The translations under genes and the position numbers were made by a program. From Phoronis australis (taxonomy: Eukaryota; Animalia; Phoronida), in NCBI GenBank assembly GCA_002633005.1, contig NMRA01000861.1, positions 53,589 to 116,991 on the forward strand: a stretch of DNA of 63,403 nt, read 5' to 3'. Below the pieces are notes generated by a model. That model was not told the DNA's origin. It saw nothing but the letters and a program-made list of their open reading frames with translations, and did not search any database. Shown here one piece after another: positions 13,138-42,052 of this stretch (its first letter is position 1; each line of letters begins with the position of its first letter).

Positions 13138-13569
13138 CTTGAACAACAAAAACAAAAGATAGAGCTTAAATACATTGACGATTATTTACACAGTTTTGGA
13201 TAAAATTATATGATTTCAAAATTGAAATTTTGCTTTTCCAATTTTACTTCATTGTTAGTATGAGGTGTTCAAGGTCATCTAATAATAATTTGAGCCTTAA
13301 AGAATTACAACAAAAAAACAAATGGAAGTGGTATTTTTCCTAAACTAAAAATTTGTTCCACGTGTCCCTGATAAAACATTTGTAGGTTAAGGTAGAATCC
13401 AACGAATTCTTAGAATAGTCGGATAGGTGGCTTCATCAATTAAAATTGATTTGAGAACCAGTTACTATCACTGCATAACAAAATTAGTTAACTTATGAAA
13501 ATATATATCTTATGCTTTTAGGCTCCGTGGTAGCTTACTGCCATATTTATAAGCATGTTTCATCAACTG

Positions 13570-14329: not shown

Positions 14330-15124
14330 AGCAGTCCTCGATTTGGCTATAGATACCCATTTCCATTTGGATCGCTTGTCAGCATCCTGGGCTCAGCCAC
14401 ATCTCTCTAAGACTAGGATGCTGACGATAGACCAAATGCTCACCGCCCAGCTGCCACGGGCTTCTCAGAAGCCTGTACAGTTGGTCGGTGGGATTGAAGT
14501 TTTCTGCGATGTGGAAAACTGGAAGTAGGTCGAGGCTTCGCGTTTTCCACATGGCTGGAAAGCTGTGATGGGTATCCACCCCAAACAGGTTGGAACAACG
14601 AATCCCGGTGTTCTAGAGCGTCTCCCCCAGCTACAAAAGGAGGCCTTTGTAGGTGAGGTCGGTCTCGATGCCCGGGATGATTTGTCCACCCCAAAAGAAG
14701 CTTTGGAGGAGATGGTGCGGATCTTTCCGGAGGTCCGGGCCAGTTCCTTCAACCTTCACGGTTCTCCCGGCAATCCACGCTTCCAGGAGGGCCAGGACTT
14801 TGACCTCCTGAAGCACCACTGTGGTGCAGACTTGGATTTGCATCTCCATTGTTTTGTAGGTGCGCCTGAGGATGTACTTCGGTGGTTGGGGGACTTCAGA
14901 AACTGCCATTTCGATTTTGGCGGACATGTAAAGCGGTTTCTAAACTTCCAATAATAAGAGGTTCTGCTGAATCAACTTCTAGAGTCCGATTCACCGCCTC
15001 GCCATTGGGCAAGCCCCAATGGTGCCCCAATACCTGGGCGAAGTGGCTATGGAGGTAGCGCAGCATTCTCGTCGTTCGCTGCGCAACATCCACCAGGAAC
15101 GCCAGGCGGCTTTACCAACGCTAA
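14330..15124 (+). pseudogene. Intronless TatD-family nuclease with stops and frameshifts
   Basis: IDTHFHLD, GIHP, VGEVGLD, HLHCF and LLESDSP in one frame through stops; after frameshifts, YLGEVAMEVA and NARRLYQR*. Confidence 0.85.
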
Positions 15125-18427: not shown

Positions 18428-20010
18428 TGTTATGATTCATGTATGTCACTATATAAGTATATGATCGCATGGATTGTAACAAAATGTAGTATCAGTAGAA
18501 GAGTATGTAATAAAACTATTATCCTCCTTCAGACTAGTATTATCCTTGGACTGCGTTCTCGCACTGCGTCGCGCATTCAACGTTTCTAACCGAACAGAAT
18601 GCCTTCCACTGCTAGCACATCAACAGGTTATGGGCCCAGCACGGCCAGCAGTTCCAGCATTAGCGTGAGTAAAAGTTCAGGAAGACTGAGTCGGCTGTGT
18701 TTTGATGGAGATGAAAGAAGGTATGAACTGTGGGAAATTAAGTTTCTCGGACATTTGAAATCGGTAGATCTGCAAGCGACAATTGAATCCGACGCGGAAA
18801 CCGTCGATGATGAGAAGAATGAAGAAGCATTCTGTGAACTAGTTCAATACTTGGACGACAAAAGGTTGAACTTAATAATTCGAGATGTGAAAAGTGACGG
18901 CTGTGAGGCACTCAAGGTTTTACGAGAACATTATACGGGGTGCAGTAAACCAAGAATAATTGGGCTATACAGCAAACTGACGGCACTAAAAATGCAAGCA
19001 AATGAGTCTGTGACAGACTATCTGATCAGGGCAGAATGTGCCGCAACTTACCTGCGAACAGCGGAAGAGGTTATAAGCGATAGCCTGTTGATCGCAATGG
19101 CCATGAAGGGATTACCAGAAAAATTCGGACCCTTCATCGTTAATGTGTCTCAGAACACAGATAAAATAGCGTTTGGAGACTTCAAAGTGAAGTTAAAGTC
19201 TTTTGAAGAAAATGAAAATGCGAGACAACACAGAAGACTCCGTAATGAGGTCGGTGACCTACCGACGGAAGAAACCAGTGGGCACAAGGCACAAGATTGC
19301 AGAACTCGAACAAGATGGTGCAGACTGTGTAAAAACAGCTCCCACAACTTCGAGGATTGCCGAAGAAGGAAAGGCACAAGTAAAGCCCACAAAGCAGCTG
19401 AGGAGCAAGACCAGCAGGGAAGTAGATTTAATGATTTCAGTTTTAAGGTTAGCGATGATCGATGTTAGTAAACAAGCTGTTAGTTGATACTGGGGCAACA
19501 TCCCATATTGTTACAGACAGGTCCAAGTTTAAATGTTTTGATGAGAACTTTTCACTGCATAGAATTGGCAGATGGGACTAGGACAACTGGTATAGCACAG
19601 GCACGTGGTGATGTTGACATTAGGATAATAGACGGTAAGGGCAGTGTCATCTGTTCCACATTGACAAATGTTTTATACATACCAAGCTATCCACAGGAAT
19701 TATTCTCTGTCCAGGCTGCTGTTGCTAATGGAGCTTCAGTGATTTTTGAATCAGAAAATGCAAAATTAATTGCTCGTGATGGGACAGAATTTGAAATTGA
19801 AAAAGGTGGAAAATTTTATTATTTGGATTATTTGGATGTATTAGTTTCTGACACAGCAAAAAAGTCAGAGAGCATGACCTGTGTACATGGCACAAAATTT
19901 TTGGCCATTGTAACAATGATGACGTATTGAGATTAGAAACAGTTGTTAGAGGTATGAAAATTACTGACAAGGCTAAGGTGGATTGTGACGTTTGTACTCA
20001 GGGGAAAATG
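18428..20010 (+). mobile_element. Ty1/Copia 5' half (GalEa-like): LTR, PBS, gag, protease, GAG-pre-integrase; truncated
   Basis: TGTT...AACA LTR ending at 18625 (start uncertain); PBS GGTTATGGGCCCAG 18626-18639 (half-tRNA-iMet type); FDGDERRYELWEIKFLG, CRLCKNSSHNFEDC, a DTGATSH-like remnant, LTNVLYIPS, CDVCTQGKM. Confidence 0.88.
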
Positions 20011-30411: not shown

Positions 30412-30763
30412 TGTAATATAATGAGACACTGCTCTCCACGTGTATGTAAACATGTCTTAAAATATTCCCAGGGGATGTTCATACTCCTCCACGTGCATGC
30501 AAACATGTCTTAAAATATTCTCAGGGGATGTGTATACTTCAGTGGTAGTCGAGATTTCTAAAGGATGTACATATCTCTAGAGTGGCAATTATATGGAGAT
30601 TTCTCACGGGATAGGCACATTCCTGGTGTAGCAAATCTGAGAAGAGTGGCAGTTATGCAAGAATTTTCTATAGGATAGTCAATTAGCTGGTTGTAAGAGA
30701 GATGTACTAAAAGAGGTGGGACCATCACGTGATGGCTCCAAAGGTATTATTTAAGACACTAAC
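30412..30763 (+). repeat. 5' LTR (visible part, cut by the gap)
   Basis: Nearly identical to 39070-39423; contains an internal ~57 bp tandem duplication. Confidence 0.95.
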
Positions 30764-31254
30764 NNNNNNNNNNNNNNNNNNNNNNNNNNNNNNNNNNNNN
30801 NNNNNNNNNNNNNNNNNNNNNNNNNNNNNNNNNNNNNNNNNNNNNNNNNNNNNNNNNNNNNNNNNNNNNNNNNNNNNNNNNNNNNNNNNNNNNNNNNNNN
30901 NNNNNNNNNNNNNNNNNNNNNNNNNNNNNNNNNNNNNNNNNNNNNNNNNNNNNNNNNNNNNNNNNNNNNNNNNNNNNNNNNNNNNNNNNNNNNNNNNNNN
31001 NNNNNNNNNNNNNNNNNNNNNNNNNNNNNNNNNNNNNNNNNNNNNNNNNNNNNNNNNNNNNNNNNNNNNNNNNNNNNNNNNNNNNNNNNNNNNNNNNNNN
31101 NNNNNNNNNNNNNNNNNNNNNNNNNNNNNNNNNNNNNNNNNNNNNNNNNNNNNNNNNNNNNNNNNNNNNNNNNNNNNNNNNNNNNNNNNNNNNNNNNNNN
31201 NNNNNNNNNNNNNNNNNNNNNNNNNNNNNNNNNNNNNNNNNNNNNNNNNNNNNN
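30764..31254. other. Assembly gap hiding the rest of the 5' LTR, the PBS and most of gag
   Basis: 491 N; ~470 bp of LTR alone is missing, so the true gap is probably longer. Confidence 0.95.
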
Positions 31255-31674
31255 GGGCTCCGGGACGTGAGAATAAGAGAGCACGTCCTACGTTCAGGCC
31301 CAACAACTCTCAGGGACGCCCTTAAAGTTGCTGTCCAAGAAATACACCTATGGGCGCGAATGAATTTAAAACCAGGAGATAACAGGGAAATCAGCCCCAT
31401 GGACATAGATAAAGTATCCCCTCCTCAAAGATGCAGGATTTGCAACAGAACAAATCATAGGACGAGGGACTGCCGGCCGCCCAGAACTGTTAACGCTCTA
31501 GACAAAGAACCAATCAGATGTTTCTTTTGTAAAAAACCTGGCCACATGAAACGTGACTGTTTTAGTTTTAAAAGATTTTTGGCCGCCCAAGCGAATCAGA
31601 AGCCAGTTAATTACTCTGACAACCCAAGCCCTGCTGATACCACACCACATGACGTTAACCCACAGGGAAACTAA
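31255..31674 (+). CDS. gag: Gag C-terminus with two CCHC zinc knuckles (5' partial)
   Basis: SPMDID, CRICNRTNHRTRDC, CFFCKKPGHMKRDC. Confidence 0.9.
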   Translation, partial: GLRDVRIREHVLRSGPTTLRDALKVAVQEIHLWARMNLKPGDNREISPMDIDKVSPPQRCRICNRTNHRTRDCRPPRTVNALDKEPIRCFFCKKPGHMKRDCFSFKRFLAAQANQKPVNYSDNPSPADTTPHDVNPQGN

Positions 31675-31739
31675 TGTGCACTGACTCGAGAGCTTCCGCG
31701 GGTCAGGATGATGTTGTAACTTTATGTTTTTTGGGAAGC
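31665..31739 (+). promoter_or_regulatory. -1 ribosomal frameshift signal at the gag-pol junction
   Basis: In-frame G GGA AAC directly before the gag TAA; pol is in the -1 frame; stem CTGACTCG/CGGGTCAG at 31681-31706. Confidence 0.75.
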
Positions 31740-34700
31740 GAAGATAGTATTCACGTACAGGTGGGACAGACGCGAGTCAGAGCGTTAATTGACTCGGGTG
31801 CTGCAATATCCGTTATTTCGGAAGTTACATTTGAAGAGCTTAAACGAAAAGACTTGGTAGAAATAGTTAATCGAAAACCTGTAGTTCAGACAGCGAATAA
31901 TCAACGTTTGAATGTCCTCGCTTGTGTCCTGTTAAGCTTAAAAATCGGAAACAATATTCTCAAGCATGAATTCGTGGTGATTCGAGATGTAAATCGAAGA
32001 ATGATAATTGGAAAAGACTTTCTTCATAAAAATAACTGTTGTGTCTACTTTGATCTCAGAATGTTACGAATAAAAGAATTTTACACACCCTTAATTCAAG
32101 ATTCGCTGGTTAAGTCTTATGTTAGAATAATCAAAGAAATTATAGTTAAACCTTATTCCAAGGTTGTATGTCGTGCCAGAAGCTGCGCCGCCAGGGGTAG
32201 CAAAAGACAACAAATATTCCAGGTGTCACCTTTAGCAACCGGATTCCTAAATGCAGAACCTGGCTTATCAGTTTCGAACGCAGTAATAAAGCCGGGCAAG
32301 GCCGGAAAATTCCCGGTGGAAATAATCAATAATTCTGGCCGATATATCAAGATAAAACGAGGAGTTGCAGTAGGACAGGTTGAAGAACTAAGTAATGCAA
32401 ATATTGTGAATGTGCTAGAGAAATCAACATCAGCCCAGTCGGCTAGTAAACAAACGTTGGACTTATCCGATATTGATACACCTGATGAGTAGGTTAGCTT
32501 AGTGAAAACGTTATTAAAACAAAATAGCGATGTTTTCGCAGCAACCGATCTCGATTTGGGGAAAACAAACACGGTACAAATGCGCATAGACGTACCGGAC
32601 GGCACAGTTGTCAAACAGAGGCCTTATCGGCTTCTGATAGCAAAACAACAAATAGCTAAAGAAGCGGTGGATAAAATGCTTACTGCGAAGGTCATAGAAC
32701 CATCTCGATCCAACTTTTGCTCACCTATAGTATTAGTAACCAAAAAGGATGGTAGCGTAAGGTTTTGTGTAGACTATAGGAAACTAAACAGTGTAACTAA
32801 AGGTTATTCGTTCTTTCTACCGAAAATTGATGACATATTGAACGATCTTAGGGGTTCAAGTATTTATAGTTCATTGGACTTACGTAGTGGTTTCTGGCAG
32901 ATTCAAATGCACCCTGATGACAAAGAAAAGACCGCTTTCTCTCCAGGATTTTCAACTGGTCACAATCTTTACCAATTTCAAGTTATGCCATTCGGACTTT
33001 GCAATAGTCCCAGTTTCTTCCAAGAACTTATGTCAATCGTTTTAGAAGGACTTCCTTTTGCTCGGGCCTATAACGATGATTGCATTATTTACAGTAAAAG
33101 TGTCGCTGAACACGTTGAACATCTGAAAATCGTTTTCCAACGTCTCAGAGAACATAATTTGAAGTTGAAATTGTCCAAATGCCAATTTCTTAAGCCTCAA
33201 ACGAACTATCTGGGCTTCATAGTAGATAAAGAAGGGATCCGCCCAGACCCAGCCAAAATTTCGGCTATTAGATCAATGAAACGACCAGCCTCGGTAAAAG
33301 AAGTAAGGGCACTACAAGGAATCCTGTCATATTATCGAAGGTTTATTCCTAACTTGGCAGGCATTATGACTCCATTGACTGAACTGACCAAGAAATATGC
33401 CAGATTTAAATGGACACCTGAATGCGAAAACGCTTTTAAATTTATCAAAGAACATCTTTCCGCAGTTCCGATGCTAAATTATCCTGATCCCAAATTGAGT
33501 TATATTATATACACCGATGCGAGTGATTTTGCAATTGGGGCCTGTTTGGTACAAAAGTGTCAAGATGAAGATGTTGAAAAACCTATCTACTTTATGTCAC
33601 AAAAATTGACTGACACGCAAAAGCGTTGGGCAACCATTGAAAAGGAATGTTTTGCAGTATTGATGGCCCTTAAGAAATTCGAACACTACATTTGCAATTC
33701 CAAAATCACGCTTTTCACGGACCATATGCCTCTCATTTATTTGCTTAAAAGCGACATACAAAATAAGAAAGTGGCGCAATGGTCGGTACTTATCTCGGCT
33801 TATGATGTTGAAATTAAGCATATTCCGGGCAAGGATAACACGATAGCTGACCTGTTGAGCAGAGCGCCCTCCAACGATGATAATGCGATTGACGAGGAAA
33901 CCCTCGACATAGACGATAGGACTTTTGAGGTTCAGGCTCCGATAGCACAAGTTAATGTAGTAGATAACAGCAGAATTGATCCTAAATCTCATGAAATGGA
34001 GAGTCCTCCAATACCTAATTTTACCTCTGAATTGCAAATGCCTAAGTTAGAAATGAATATGCAAGAGGAACAAAAGAAAGATCAAGAGTGTAGGACAATA
34101 ATCGATGAACTGTCGTCTCCTAAGCCTAGCAAAAGAATTGGAAATAAGTATTTACTCAAAGAAAATGTCCTATATTACGTTTCCGACGATCACGGCGACG
34201 TCAAGGTTTGTCTGTACGTCCCCGAACATTTACAGTCGCTTGTCATCAAACAATATCACGATCAACTGGGGCATGCAGGGATAGATCGAACATATCAGTC
34301 GTCTAGGAACTGTTATTTCTGGCCTAGAATGTTTAAGGACATTGAGAAGTATGTTTCAGAATGCGTTACATGCCAGGAACGAAATCTAAAAACAGTTAAA
34401 TCTCTGCTAGGGGCGTCTAATGTTGTGAACGGCCCCTGGCAACAAGTAGCAATAGATTGTGTCGGTCCTATGAAACCATCACCCAGTGGTAACCGATATA
34501 TTTTGACTCTGACTGATTGGTTTTCAAATTACACGTTGTTGTATCCGATGCCGGATAAGAGTGCCGCCACAATCGCACGAATCCGGACCACTGATATCTT
34601 TTGTAGATTCGGTATAATGAACATTTTGGTCTCAGACAACGGCTCTGAATTTGTAAACAAAACAGTAAAAGATGTTTTGGAATCATTTAACATTCGGCAT

Positions 34701-35795
34701 GTTACCACAAGTTTTTAAAATCCAAAAGCAAATGGCCGAGTCGAACGATCACACAAAGTACTTGGTGACGTTTTGAGTAAATTATGCCGTGAAAATCCAG
34801 AACAATGGGATGTCTATCTCAGTCAAGCAGAGTCATGCTTAAATTTTCATACTAACTATACTGGGTATAGCAGTTATTTTGTTATGTTCGGTAGAGACCC
34901 TAAACTTCTTGTACATAACATAATGCGACCACGTGCTAAGTACGTGGGCGAGGAAGAACATAAGGTTATCCTACAAAACCAACATAGAGTTTTTAGGACA
35001 GTTTATCGAGTGATAAAACACCATCAGAACAAAAGATTAGCTACCGCGAATAAGGATAGAATTTTGGTTGAATTAGAAATTGGCGATCCCGTGTACCTTA
35101 AAAATAATTCTAAAACCAGCAAACTGGACCCTAAGTGGACGGGTTATTGGCGCGTCCTAGAACGACTGTCTGAAAAAACATATGTCATCAGGAATCAGTT
35201 AGATGGGACGGTTACCAAGTCGCACATTGACAACTTGAGGTGGGCACAAATCGACGATTGGAAGGTGAATGACGACGATTATCCACAAATGAGGAGAGCG
35301 CGCTACACCGTCCCTCCCAGCTCTAGTGAAGAAAGCGATGTGTCTGACGACGAACCACAGCAACGTCTGCAGGATCATTTGCGCCAAATGAAGGGGGATT
35401 CATCTTCAGATGACTCTGACGTTCCCTTAGCGGAACCTCAAAGAAGACTCCAACAGAGGGGGCAAGTGAAGACGTTGGCTCAGACGAAGCCAGCACCTCA
35501 GATGGAGGATCCAGGGACTCCATCATCTGAAAGCGAAGGACCTGAGTCCAAAGCCAAGTCGGATCCGATGACAGACCCCTCCTCACCAAACGACGAACAG
35601 TCTATGCCGTCGGATGGGACAGATATGGACGTTGCCATGGGACCACGACCAGACGATGATGCCATGGATGTGAACGTCCTCGCGCGATTGGACAAAAGGA
35701 GAAGCCGAAAGTGCAGAAAAACGACCCAAAATTCCTCCGCGGCTTATTTAGATTTGTGTCGCATGATGTTAGAAACATTTAGGAACGGTCGATAA
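31674..35795 (+). pseudogene. pol: pol (protease, RT, RNase H, integrase, acidic tail) with two in-frame stops
   Basis: LIDSGA; RFCVDYR, LDLRSGFWQ, MPFGL, YNDD; TDASD, EKE, TDH; HHCC, IDCVG, SDNG, VERSH; stops at 32490 and 34716 with the frame conserved. Confidence 0.93.
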
Positions 35796-36029
35796 GTAAT
35801 TAAGGTTTCAGATTTCATCAGAACCATTTATTTAGTAGCATACTTATACTTGAATATATTTGAATATTAGAGACGGGGGTGTCTCCCGAAAACGATATAG
35901 CCATGGGCACTCATACGTAACGTATCTGATCTAAGGGTATCCGAGTCAGTTCTCGGCATGGCAAGTACTTTTAGTAGAATGAGGAGCGAGTTAAGTAACC
36001 TCAGTGACTATTGTTGTTTCAGAGAGACA

Positions 36030-38016
36030 ATGCAACGATTAACAGGTTTGCTGTTGTTGGCTGGTATCGTGCAATGCGTCATTGTCAAAAATGGGGTAGT
36101 TTTTGAGAAAATTAATTTATTTTATAGTTCGTGGGGACACTGGTGGGTGACGAGTTTTATTGACCTCAGCGAATTCTCTGAGTTCATGTCCCAGTTTTCC
36201 CGGGACATAGAACGTGCTTACTATACGCATACTCAGGTAAAGAAAAAGTACGCTGACCCCAAAGATGTCAATTTCTTGGGATATTTTTCCAGATTGAGAA
36301 AACAAATTGATGATATCAGATTCACGAAAGAGGCCGTCGACGAGTTGTTGACTGGCTATAACACTTTGGCTCAATTTCGAGGTAACAGAAGCAAACGGAG
36401 TCTTCTGCCTTTCATGGGAAAAATTAGTCATTGGCTATTTGGCACAGCCACTGATGATGATATTAAAGCTATTAGGGAATCGATTGATATGATAGTGAGG
36501 AACCAAAAGAGGATTGTTACTAACGCATTAAAGAGGGTAACCGTAATGAAAGCCACTAGAACCGAAGTAAATAGAAATCGAGAGACCTTGAATGACTTGA
36601 TTCTTTCGACTTATGAAATAGAACAACGTCTTAATAACGTGACTGATATGCTACACGATGAAATACAGGATTTGTCGGTCTTCACCCAGAGTTACATACA
36701 CTTAGAACTCATTTTAAACCATCTGGAATTGGCTGCGCAAAAAGCCTTAGGCTATTTGGCTCCCATTGAAAGTCAAATAGGAATATTGTCTCTGGGACAA
36801 GTTACTCCAGCGGTGGTTCAGCCGGAAGCATTACGCAATATATTAAAGGACATACGAACGAATATTCCACGCCATTTAAAATTACCTTTTGATCCTGACA
36901 GAGTTGTTTCAATATTATAAGTCTCTCCCGTATCATACTGCGTGGGAAAATGGACGAATCTTGGTCACGTTTCGGATTTCATTAATTGACACTTACGCAC
37001 GTATGGAATTATTTCAAATTCATAATTTGCCAGCTCCCTTCCCTAATTCCAACCGCTCTCACATTTTGGCGAAGTATTCATTGGAGGCCACGGCGTTAGC
37101 CATAAACCCAGAACGAACGTCTTATGCCTTACTAGATTATGCCAGCATGAAGGCATGCTCATCGCTTAATTTCTGTGAGACCCGACAACCGTTACGCCCT
37201 GTTAATTTGAGCAAAGATTGTGTGGTGGCTCTGTTCATGAAGTTTGACGATACTATCAAAAGGCTCTGTCGTGTTTTTATTAAAACAAATACAGCCTTAC
37301 CACAGGCCATATATCTGAGATCTGGCTGGTACGCTGTAGTTAGTAACGAGGTTACAAGATTTGCCCTCCTGTGCAACCACAGTCGCACTAACACTAAATC
37401 AGTTACGGTGGACATTGGGGTAAATATGATACACGTCGATTACGGATGCCAGGCCACACATCCAACTATGTCCCTCCTGGGAACTTTTCACAGGGAATCT
37501 AGATACGAACATCCTGATAGCTTCGCTCGAGTTTTGAGAATTCGAAAAGGATCCTTCACGATGTGGTCTCCTTATATTGCAGCCTTTCCTAAACATGTGG
37601 AAGCAAAAATACCGCCATGTCTCGCTCACTTAGCCGAAATTTCCCTGGACGGTTTAGTCACTGATTTACGAAACCTGGAAACTCCAAAACCTTGGACCCC
37701 CGATAATGAATTTTGGTTATAAGTCGCTCTGGGAGTAGCAGCATCGCTATTAATTTTGGGGTTAATTGTTTTCTTGAAACGTAGACAAATTGCACGTGCC
37801 ATACTTGAACAGTATCAGCCTGTGGTAACCGATGGTAGTTGTCCAGTTGCCACTGCACCGCCAGCGTTCGCACTCATGAGCGCACCGAACGATGCCCGAC
37901 AGACGTCACCGGCTGGGGAGAAACCCAGTGCTGACGACCACCCGACCGTATCGACTCAATGGAATGGCAAACCAATCGAGATGAAGCAATTCGTCCGACG
38001 TATGTATCCTACCTAG
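36030..38016 (+). pseudogene. env: env: class I fusion glycoprotein of baculovirus-F/gypsy type; one frameshift (~36900) and one stop (37720)
   Basis: Signal peptide MQRLTGLLLLAGIVQC after a tttcag acceptor (36022); furin site RSKR (36387-36398) followed by fusion peptide SLLPFMGKISHWLFGTA; heptad region; Cys-rich region; TM VALGVAASLLILGLIVFL-KRR. Confidence 0.88.
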
Positions 38017-38206
38017 GATCCGGAAACTGGAGAGGGCCTGAAGGAAACCTCCATGTGACTCCGAGCTGTCTGTAGCCGTCGTAGTAGTACTACTGAACCT
38101 TACAAGTAGAGTATGCTAGATAGTCGTCAGAAAGGTGGTGGTTATTAACATTGACAATTGTTACGATATCTAAAGGAACTTATGAAACTATTGCAGGAAA
38201 AAAACA

Positions 38207-38599
38207 ATGGCCGAACCAATCTACAAAACGTTACCCGCTGTCCGTTTGGACGCCTCAGTGGAAGGGCAGTGGATCGTCTTCCGCGTCGACCCCACGGCGG
38301 ACGCCACTGTGTTGTCACTTGCAGATTTTGCAAGCATACAATACGGGGGTAGTCAGACTCCAAAAGGACTATCGTGCGACAGACAGTCGTGGGGTGGCAC
38401 AAAAGAAAGTGACGCCCAATACGCTCAGGTCTACTATGACCGGAGGGAATGCGTTGCGGATGTGGTCGACATTTTCTCACTGGAAGTGGAGATACAAGGG
38501 AGGACCAAGCATATGCCTGTGGCAGTAGCAAACGTACCGGAGAGCCTGTTGGCGTCTGATTATTTTCAAACGCCGCAGACTCATCCGCTACGGTTATAA
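38207..38599 (+). CDS. Unknown 130-aa ORF4 between env and the 3' LTR
   Basis: Uninterrupted; AAACAATGG start context; ttgcag 11 nt upstream; balanced globular composition; AT-rich UTR follows the stop. Confidence 0.55.
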   Translation: MAEPIYKTLPAVRLDASVEGQWIVFRVDPTADATVLSLADFASIQYGGSQTPKGLSCDRQSWGGTKESDAQYAQVYYDRRECVADVVDIFSLEVEIQGRTKHMPVAVANVPESLLASDYFQTPQTHPLRL

Positions 38600-39069
38600 A
38601 TGATTAAATAATATGTAATTGTAATGTGCTATATTCTTAGTTAGTTTAGTTGGGGTGGCACTTTCATGGTTAATTAATTAGTTACGATATGAGATATTTT
38701 GGTAGATTTGGTTTAAGGGGAACTGTGACTTAGTTATGATTTTAATGGATATAAAGTATAATTGTTCATGTAATAAGGGGTTGGTATAAAGTTCGTTTGG
38801 TAATAGAAACATTCTGTATGTGTGTGTTACATTATATTAATTGTTGTGATAGTTTCTTGTGGTTGATATTTCATTGTGAGATGCTGTTTGTTAACCTGTT
38901 TAACGATCATCTGGAGGCTGACGACTTTCCATGTTTTGTCATTGATTTTTTTTGTGTGTATCTATTGCAGTTGTATGGCGATCACCTGGGTGAAACTTTA
39001 CATTGTCGGAAAATCTACGACTTCCCAAAAATTTATTGTGTAAATGTTTTGGCTTAACAAAAGGGGGAG

Positions 39070-39894
39070 TGTAATATAATGAGACACTGCTCTCCACGTG
39101 TATGTAAACATGTCTTAAAATATTCCCAGGGGATGTTCATACTCCTCCACGTGCATGCAAACATGTCTTAAAACATTCTCAGGGGATGTGTATACTTCAG
39201 TGGTAGTCTAGATTTCTAAAGGATGTACATATCTCTAGAGTGGCAATTATATGGAGATTTCTCACGGGATAGGCACATTCCTGGTGTAGCAAAGAGTGAG
39301 AAGAGTGGCAGTTATGCAAGAATTTTCTATAGGATAGTCAATTAGCTGGTTGTAAGAGAGATGTACTAAAAGAGGTGGGACCATCACGTGATGGCTCCAA
39401 AGGTATTATTTAAGACACTAACAAAGGCAGATCAGTTAGACCGCACCGAACAAGACGACTGAAGTCTTCAAAAACTGCAAAGTCACGATCTCAGCTAGAC
39501 AGTGAACGGCAGGGACACAGGACCGGACGGGAAAAACCACGAATCAAGCACAACCGAGGTATAGACATTTAACACAGGTGTTGGTCTCAGCCTGTCAGTC
39601 AATTCGAACCAGTCTAGCGATTGTTCTAGAGGTTTAGTTCTTTTTGCGACTTGTAGTGTGTTTACATGTGCGGTTGCTATTGGTAACTGGTGACATTGTT
39701 ATTTAATACTTTCTCTAGCAGTGATATCTCTTCTCGTTCAGTTTGTCGTCAGCCTCGCATCTTATTGTAAACTATTGTTTGTTAATCACAACGCTGCAAA
39801 TTAATAGACGTATTTTATTGGTTGAGGTATTTGTGTGTTGTTTTAATTACTACCACGTGCGCGCCATCTGTCGGCCGCAACACGATTCATTACA
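39070..39894 (+). repeat. 3' LTR, 825 bp
   Basis: TGTAAT...ATTACA after the PPT; matches the 5' LTR. Confidence 0.92.
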
Positions 39895-40348
39895 CCACAC
39901 NACCCTCTAGATATTTGCTCTTACACTGTGAATAGGCCGAACCTGTGAGGCTGTATTGTAGCCTGTATGTTTGCAGTAGCCGACAATTAATACAATACTC
40001 AATAGTTTTAAGCCTTGGCTTGGGCTTGGTTGGTAGAGATCATGAGTGAAAACTGAAAGTGAAACTGAGACGTTCTGTGAAATAGGGCAACGCTGTCAAA
40101 ATATTGGTAATATATCTTTCACACCTTGTTTAATATCACCATCGATTCATATGATTCGTTTCTTCCTGAGCTCAGCGCGAGAGCTGATTTACATAATACA
40201 TTTACGAGATATAGCCACACGTCTTGCCCAAAGCAAGTGCACATAATTATCTCCCCTGATATGTGTGTGACTTAGCAAAGACACTTACTCGCTGGTTCCC
40301 TGAGTGCTCAGCCCAGCCAGCACGCAGGTATAACGCAGTGGCACGCGC

Positions 40349-41023
40349 GGCACTAGTCGGATGTAATGGACCCAAACTTATTCCAAATAAATCCACTAAA
40401 TGTTGGTCTAAATGAATGATTTTGGTATCGTTGCATTCCTCAGACATCTGGCTATTCGTACAAATCATTTTCACGACCCTCAATTACTCTAGTCTATAGC
40501 TACGCTGTTCCGAACTCGGTCCACTTTAGCCACGCGCATCGTGAAAACGGCAGCCATTTCAGGGAACTTACTGTATCTAGCGACATCTATCGGCGATTTG
40601 CTACAACATGCGCTGTTCCTTTTTCATCAGTCAATGTCATTGGTCAATATTATTAACGTCAGTCGTTATTAATCATCTGCTTTCGTCATCACCTTCGTCG
40701 TCTCTCTCACGATCGTATCTGTCATCGTCGTCCATGTTGACTGATGAAAAAGGAACAGCGCGTGTTGTAGCAAATCGCCGATAGATGGCGCTAGATATAG
40801 TAAGTTCCCTGAAATGGCTGCCGATTTCACAATGCCCTAACGCTAAAGTGTACCAAGTTCAGAATGGCGTAGTTATAGACTAGAGTAATTGAGGGTCGTG
40901 AAAAGGATTTGTATGGATAGCCAGATGTCTGAGGAATGCAACGATACCAAAATCATTCATTTAGACCTACATTTAGTGGATTTATTTGGAATAAGTTAGG
41001 GTCCATTATATCCGACTAGTGCC
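40349..41023. mobile_element. Foldback MITE with ~285 bp arms (MULE- or Merlin-like)
   Basis: GGCACTAGTCGG...CCGACTAGTGCC; 8-bp TSD GCACGCGC at 40341-40348 and 41024-41031. Confidence 0.85.
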
Positions 41024-42052
41024 GCACGCGCTTTAGCATTGGTCGATGTAACTTCGGCAGTCATTGGTTAGCTTTACAACAACGTGAAAAAATGGCCGGC
41101 TGTGAATGATTTTTAGCCTTGTCATGGAAGTGGCGTCGCAGAAACTATTTCGTTTCTGCAGTGATGTTTAATAGCCGCGTGCTTGAAGCACATACATATA
41201 CAATAAACACACATCTAGCCGATTTAACCGGTGTGTTATTCATACTGTATGAATACAGGACACTATCGTAAACAAAAGTCATCGACAGTGCATCTCGAAA
41301 AGGCGCAATTACAATTTCTAGGCTTCACATTTCCTGAACATAAATTTTAAGCACCCGATTTGTCTGCACAACAGACCACATTTACACTTCAGTCCATCAG
41401 TCATACCAGTTTGTTTGCGTAAACCGCTGCCTGTTGAGAATTTGACTAGCCAATCAGAAACGCCGGTGTAAAAAAATTTACCGAGGAAAATTAAGGGATT
41501 ACCGCCCCACCTAGCGGCACGCAGGGAACCAGCGAGAGACACTTACAGCATGAATAATGAGAAAAATAACCTCGAAAGTGATAGAAAAGTAATCAAATGT
41601 GCTTTTACTAAGAAAAAATCGCATAAAAAACGTCCAAACAGGTTCACTTTGTAAGAAACTCGAGATAAATTTGGCTAAAATCACAAGCAAGCTTACACAT
41701 GGCTTCTGTGAGCTCTTCTGTCGCTGGCTTCTGCGGAAATATTGTTTGCAAATAACATACTCTTCGATTAAAAATCCAAATTAATTTGTGTCTGTTTTAC
41801 CACAAAGAGCACAAAAATGATTCAAAACACACATTGTGGGATTACAAATAAATCTTTCAAAGTTTTTAGTATTCCGTAAGTCATATAATTTTATTGTAGA
41901 TTTCTGTTCGTTAGGTGAGTTATAGCGGTTCAAGCTCCTCGTAAACTTCCGACTGTCACTCGAGCGGTCAGCGGTCGTCGAGTTATAACCTCCACTGACA
42001 GAAGGTTGTTGTTGTTGTATCTACAAGTTTGTTCGCTTGTTTGCTAACCACG

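Follow-up and report, generated by a model that had tools for sequence, protein, structure and literature searches.

The iERVs of Drosophila (gypsy, ZAM and idefix) encode an Env-F with a signal peptide, furin site, fusion peptide, cysteines, transmembrane (TM) segment and tail (Senti et al., PMC12992720). This protein is made from a spliced subgenomic RNA, in which the env exon is linked to gag, to an AU dinucleotide or to short exons upstream (PMC12992720). Outside the insects, Chary and Hayashi (eLife 2026; PMC13524379) reported 1,512 intact env-carrying Ty3/gypsy elements over most animal phyla, with F-type env elements in annelids, bivalves, gastropods and a hemichordate. On these ‘ancient errantiviruses’ the main text of the survey is silent as to splicing, accessory genes and zinc (CCHC) knuckles, and it presents no fourth gene or splice map. 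There is precedent for extra genes in invertebrate LTR elements (PMC10309623, PMC11952523, PMC5408684). Cer1 of C. elegans produces from a spliced RNA the accessory protein CERV, which exports RNA (PMC10309623). The MDG1 group has the accessory proteins sORF1 and sORF2, the latter a small TM fusogen of env-less elements (PMC11952523). The LTR elements of bdelloid rotifers, which are also aquatic invertebrates, have captured 3′ ORF3s including a paramyxovirus-like F env; in these the extra ORF (GDSL, DEDDy) replaces env, and the available text of that paper mentions no ORF4 (PMC5408684).

In this study, we analyzed a 63,403-nt stretch of Phoronis australis DNA (the window), in which a retroelement spans positions 30412-39894 of the + strand. 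It is almost certainly a Ty3/gypsy LTR retrotransposon with an F-type env, present here as a broken copy. We give about an even chance to the fuller reading, in which the element also carries a fourth gene, ORF4, whose RNA is likely spliced from an LTR donor and whose predicted product is a retroviral-type protease in disabled form.

Organization and relatives of the element

The features that define the element, apart from env and ORF4, are as follows.

30412..30763, + strand: visible portion of the 5′ LTR, a direct repeat of 39070-39422 (348/352 identical)
30764..31254, no strand: assembly gap of 491 N, in which the remaining (3′) half of the 5′ LTR, the primer-binding site and the greater part of gag are hidden
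31258..31674, + strand: gag C-terminus with two CCHC knuckles (Pfam PF00098, 2 stretches, E 3e-8)
31659..35795, + strand: pol, with protease (DSGA), RT, RNase H, integrase and an acidic tail (Pfam), and stops at 32490 and 34716
31665..31671, + strand: GGGAAAC heptamer at the gag-pol overlap, from its sequence a likely -1 frameshift site, pol being in the -1 frame
39057..39069, + strand: polypurine tract directly before the 3′ LTR
39070..39894, + strand: 3′ LTR of 825 nt, with a TATA-like box at 39407, an initiator-like TCAGTT at 39432 and a GT donor at 39559

The order protease, RT, RNase H, then integrase between LTRs with TG...CA ends, together with the polypurine tract, is that of the Ty3/gypsy group (Metaviridae). 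The LTR termini read TGTAAT...ATTACA, and the flanks CCAT and CCAC represent a 4-bp target duplication with one mismatch. Across the 352 comparable bases the LTR pair differs by 4 mismatches and 1 gap (1.1% apart). Since the 491-N gap lies inside the element, its length exceeds 9.5 kb, and the 3′ LTR was used in place of those 5′ LTR positions that the gap conceals. A 53-nt unit is tandemly duplicated in the U3 of both LTRs (30434-30538 and 39092-39196). No second copy of the element was found within the window.

A slippery heptamer follows the rule XXXYYYZ, to which the sequence at the gag-pol overlap conforms. The two CCHC knuckles that the original prediction had placed in Gag were recovered by Pfam; we know of no such knuckles in the Gag of insect errantiviruses. 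The closest solved relative of Pol is Ty3 Gag-Pol (E 5e-91). The bridge of ‘ancient’ errantiviruses is marked by RNase H plus a mini domain, as opposed to a duplicated pseudo-RNase H; here RNase H appears as a single region in Pfam, with a bridge of 131 aa that falls inside the range of 115-146 in 79 relatives. Between protease and RT (32090-32480) lie about 130 aa with a beta-rich pattern and no Pfam match in that stretch, reminiscent of the dUTPase-like insert that some gypsy elements carry in degenerate form. The integrase is followed by some 180 aa of acidic, low-complexity tail (35250-35795); it is absent from the ends of the related proteins P0002 and P0003, perhaps because their contigs are short.

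Among the best 120 RT matches, 15 bear an organism name, namely five molluscs (50-56% identity), six bacterial MAG labels, three frogs and one pseudoscorpion, but no insect, in agreement with the prediction that the element is not typical of insects. The two nearest of these 120 matches, P0002 and P0003, are 79% and 69% identical. In an RT tree of 48 of the 121 rows, which contained no insect reference, the window sequence, P0002 and P0003 formed a clade with support 100 that had no firm place among the mollusc elements. The six MAG-labelled matches (P0028, P0033, P0067, P0098, P0106 and P0115) are gypsy Pol proteins filed under bacterial ‘Candidatus Thiodiazotropha’. These bacteria are clam symbionts, and the entries are likely contamination from the host animals. 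As for the surrounding transposable elements, from which an aquatic invertebrate had been predicted as the source, a DDE_Tnp_4/HTH_Tnp_4 transposase (1686-2261, - strand) and a Copia gag, the latter in a gag-pol remnant at 18590-19930, were recovered among 14 flanking ORFs scanned, none of which was named Kolobok. The window further contains a gag-like frame at 13488 that is followed by a TatD DNase-like frame (14529-14951). A near-perfect long inverted repeat of MITE-like appearance (40341-41031; arms of 190 and 99 nt, 93-95%) lies 450 nt downstream of the element.

The envelope gene and other copies of the element

36001..36022, + strand: predicted env splice acceptor (motif: AG after a pyrimidine-rich run, 7 nt before the ATG)
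36030..38016, + strand: F-type env of 661 codons with two breaks, namely a frameshift near 36900 and a stop at 37720 (Pfam Baculo_F; relative P0001)

The env product begins with a hydrophobic N-terminus, carries RSKR at aa 120-123 (furin site, 36387-36398) followed by a hydrophobic peptide, and ends with a TM stretch (37723-37779) and a tail. The anatomy originally proposed for it, a protein of about 660 aa with signal peptide, furin site, fusion peptide, TM segment and tail, was thus borne out, and it is the same as that of the Drosophila iERVs. Pieces of the ectodomain matched Baculo_F with E-values of 7e-6, over the curated cut-off, and 2e-5, slightly below it. An unbroken relative of this env, P0001 (666 aa, 52% identical), matched Baculo_F at E 2e-15 and reached a score of 0.96 in the Atlas with 223/256 features. 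Although the fold model of P0001 was of low confidence (pLDDT 41) and the TM-scores were low, all ten Foldseek matches with E <= 0.001 were the F proteins of RSV or henipaviruses. The proposed fusogen homology therefore stands, and env is solidly predicted to encode a homolog of F-type fusogens.

PMC13524379 recognizes errantiviruses by an env-like ORF of F or gB type after a Ty3/gypsy pol, and the element has such an ORF, of the F type. It shares with the ‘ancient errantiviruses’ described there the gag-pol-env order, the Ty3/gypsy pol, the LTRs, a likely host outside the insects and an F-type env in which a furin site and a fusion peptide are present. The uninterrupted gag, pol and env required for inclusion in that survey are lacking here, which concerns this copy and not its family; the family may be among the 1,512 elements or in the authors' sequence sets (PMC13524379). 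An F-type env outside insects, offered as a surprise in the original prediction, had thus already been catalogued at scale (PMC13524379), and as such envs are established there, the element alone adds one family.

Of the predicted splicing of env, the acceptor motif was recovered; the read depth was zero in the bin covering it (35980-36119) in both raw RNA runs, X5 and X6. In contrast to the Drosophila iERVs, env here is provided with an ATG of its own downstream of the predicted acceptor, and the only donor observed is that of the LTR. With two stops in pol and one stop and one frameshift in env, four coding breaks in all, this copy cannot be infectious. The suggestion of a recently infectious lineage was not sustained: this copy has these breaks and LTRs 1.1% apart, and of the related copies in the species none was demonstrated to be intact, nor was an env splice seen.

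Assembled contigs and reads revealed variation among these copies. At the env break near 36900, the window sequence is not matched by contigs of run X1, one of which is otherwise almost identical to this copy; either some copies lack the break, or it may have arisen in assembly. The stretches 38009-38128 and 38148-39047 are skipped by contigs of X1 and X2, and depth is highest over the env tail (37781-38148). These skipping contigs represent a derivative from which ORF4 has been deleted while the tail of env is kept. An opposite-strand joint between pol (32135) and the env tail (37970), seen in all three raw RNA runs and in X1, comes from a rearranged copy elsewhere in the genome.

ORF4 and its junction with the LTR

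38171..38196, + strand: splice-acceptor-like site, 10 nt before the ATG of ORF4 (RNA-read junction, contig ends, context)
38207..38599, + strand: ORF4, an ATG frame between env and the 3′ LTR that encodes 130 aa (an orphan protein, soluble, and a candidate for a degenerate retropepsin)

In shuffles of the interval between env and the LTR, an ATG frame of equal length arose in 4 of 2,000 cases. A copy of ORF4 in a contig piece showed 44 differences over 351 nt (12.5% diverged) and no gap, and two of the three variants listed for it were silent. The synonymous codon use of ORF4 resembled that of pol no more in its own frame than in another. The GC content of ORF4 is 54%, against 42% and 32% in the adjoining stretches. 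No TM stretch was found, nor did a search of 1.84 billion protein representatives return any homolog; Pfam (E <= 1), PDB sequences, PHROGs, and metagenome and viral contigs gave no matches, and plasmids and phages gave at best E 2-8. Relatives beyond the source species were thus absent from the protein representatives and from the metagenome and viral contigs, and scans of these contigs with env and integrase yielded no loci behind which ORF4 could be sought. An NCBIfam match to TruD (E 0.009), which scored 15 bits where the cut-off is 654, was rejected as chance. A recent duplication of the element's own protease was ruled out as the origin of ORF4, no DNA match being found under E 0.25. We consider ORF4 very probably a real gene.

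The raw RNA runs X5 and X6 were mapped to the stretch including the 3′ LTR. In X6, three reads with three different starts and 73 letters on the short side joined position 39559 to 38200; in X5 the junction was not seen at the listing threshold. It sits on GAG|GTATAG as donor and TTGCAG|G as acceptor, allowing for an A-run that varies among copies, and the ATG of ORF4 that follows is in good context. The TATA-like box and TCAGTT in the LTR suggest that transcription starts some 125 nt ahead of the donor, and the intervening sequence is free of ATG. The same join was present as loose contig ends in two runs guessed to be DNA, in one contig of X1 and two of X2; depth in these runs was even on near-identical pieces.

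The reads themselves came from other copies, since most of them are less than 95% alike to this one. Most RNA reads over 35700-39894, all three junction reads included, have their first mate on the + strand. In most stranded libraries such an orientation denotes antisense RNA, and the one-sided reads suggest transcription in antisense, such as an intron or a piRNA-cluster-like locus would give.

The junction was probably made by splicing. The contig ends, an AGG common to donor and acceptor and the read orientation weigh against a spliced mRNA that is made at present. Because the join also occurs in probable DNA contigs, splicing may have taken place in the past and its product been copied into DNA, and likeliest is a true splice of which part of the product was copied back. 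As splicing would remove the primer-binding site, copying back would need another route, for example LINE machinery.

A different origin of both the frame and the join, which we regard as unlikely, is that ORF4 is a passenger, either a decayed piece of protease or other DNA from another element or the host, and that the join arose as a deletion, when the template was switched at a short sequence common to both ends, and was later multiplied as a non-autonomous derivative. The foreign base composition of ORF4, its want of homologs elsewhere, the probable DNA contigs with the join and the existence of other deleted derivatives are all consistent with such an origin. So are the AGG common to both join ends, a sequence that occurs at 14 sites in the LTR and 101 inside the element, and the summed contig depth in X2, which per bin is 103-137 over ORF4 against 17-54 over env, a depth that does not give copy number. 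Set against this origin are the frame that has stayed open for 130 codons, with a 12.5%-diverged copy gapless over 351 nt, and the position of the join, which coincides with a consensus donor and lies 10 nt ahead of a well-placed ATG.

Protease likeness and possible role of ORF4

Comparison of language-model features placed all ten best named Atlas clusters of ORF4 in the retropepsin clan, at 0.91-0.93 (Atlas recognition 2910), with 131-153 shared features, which is under the 170 typical of true family members; such ten-of-ten clan agreement is also reached by one third of shuffled proteins. The three top clusters had no names. In the sequence, D-P-T-A at aa 28-31 stands in place of D-[ST]-G-A, and LLASDYF follows at aa 114-120. 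By eye, FRVDPTADATVLS and VANVPESLLASDYF of ORF4 match both motifs of the element's own protease and those of a SASPase alignment, with 87 residues between the motifs against 69-73 in relatives. Three alignments to the proteases of relatives set D28 of ORF4 on the catalytic Asp unaided. In sequence tests of the protease likeness, 21/500, 114/2,000 and 105/1,000 shuffles scored no lower than ORF4, and none of these tests was significant, nor were hhalign comparisons with proteases (E 0.54 and 0.65) or those with our own profiles (z 1.2-1.65). An alignment of ORF4 with full-length Pol scattered ORF4 over RT and was set aside. In a single-sequence model (pLDDT 41) the order of strands and helices fits a retropepsin. 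Fold searches with this model listed no retropepsin among their matches (best Z 4.1, none with E <= 0.001), the model being too poor for either reading. On balance, we slightly favor a retropepsin fold for ORF4.

The protease likeness being non-significant in alignment tests and the three top Atlas clusters being unnamed, ORF4 could instead be a real spliced accessory gene of another fold, acting like CERV of Cer1 in RNA export or as a counter-defence factor. A spliced accessory protein has precedent in an invertebrate LTR element (PMC10309623). We nevertheless hold this explanation to be rather improbable, for every named Atlas cluster is a retropepsin, and both protease motifs occur in order at a plausible distance. 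ORF4 also differs from CERV and sORF2 in that it has no TM stretch, lies behind a full env and is protease-like.

Within the retropepsin reading, activity is in question. D25 and G27 are invariant in 38/38 aligned proteases of the element and its relatives, and the catalytic motif D-[ST]-G is absent from ORF4, which lowers the case for an active protease and not that for the fold. The kept aspartate and a recognizable C-terminal motif would be compatible with an active, atypical aspartic protease directed at a separate target, be it Env, Gag or a restriction factor of the host, but with P and T after the Asp at these invariant positions we find such an enzyme very improbable. Because ORF4 keeps the Asp without the following Thr/Ser-Gly, it would most likely serve as an inactive partner or decoy. 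The retroviral protease is a dimer in which two Asp-Thr-Gly triads build one active site, and its premature activation harms assembly (PMC8537868).

We propose that an intact element would make Gag from its full-length RNA, together with Gag-Pol by -1 frameshifting. A single LTR donor would serve either the acceptor of env, as we infer, or that of ORF4, for which the join was seen; with no ATG between the start site and the donor, translation of either RNA would start at the gene spliced to it. Cleavage of Env at the furin site would enable it to fuse particles with other cells, as homology to the Drosophila iERVs suggests. ORF4, by pairing with the Gag-Pol protease or competing against it, would hold back processing by this dimeric enzyme until the particles have been assembled, a delay that would matter most for an element whose particles exit the cell. 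That ORF4 damps the element's own protease in this way is our best guess, to which we give well under even odds.

In complex retroviruses such as foamy viruses and HTLV-1, the major splice donor lies in the R region of the LTR and accessory genes lie between env and the 3′ LTR. Their pol and env are unrelated to those of this element, and their accessory proteins are not protease-like. The most extended form of our model, in which the element resembles complex retroviruses in that an LTR donor feeds both env and a dead second protease timing maturation, and in which the spliced RNA of this protease was copied back into the genome and multiplied, is about as doubtful.

Search listings of the literature outside subscription journals and Repbase showed no retroelement with a separately spliced pseudo-protease or with a spliced protease-like gene behind env. 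It is ORF4 that matters most at this locus, since how the protease of a retroelement is kept silent before assembly is a long-standing question. If the proposed role is true, ORF4 would be a natural protease regulator that is testable with two small purified proteins, and surveys that end at gag-pol-env would miss accessory genes in non-insect errantiviruses.
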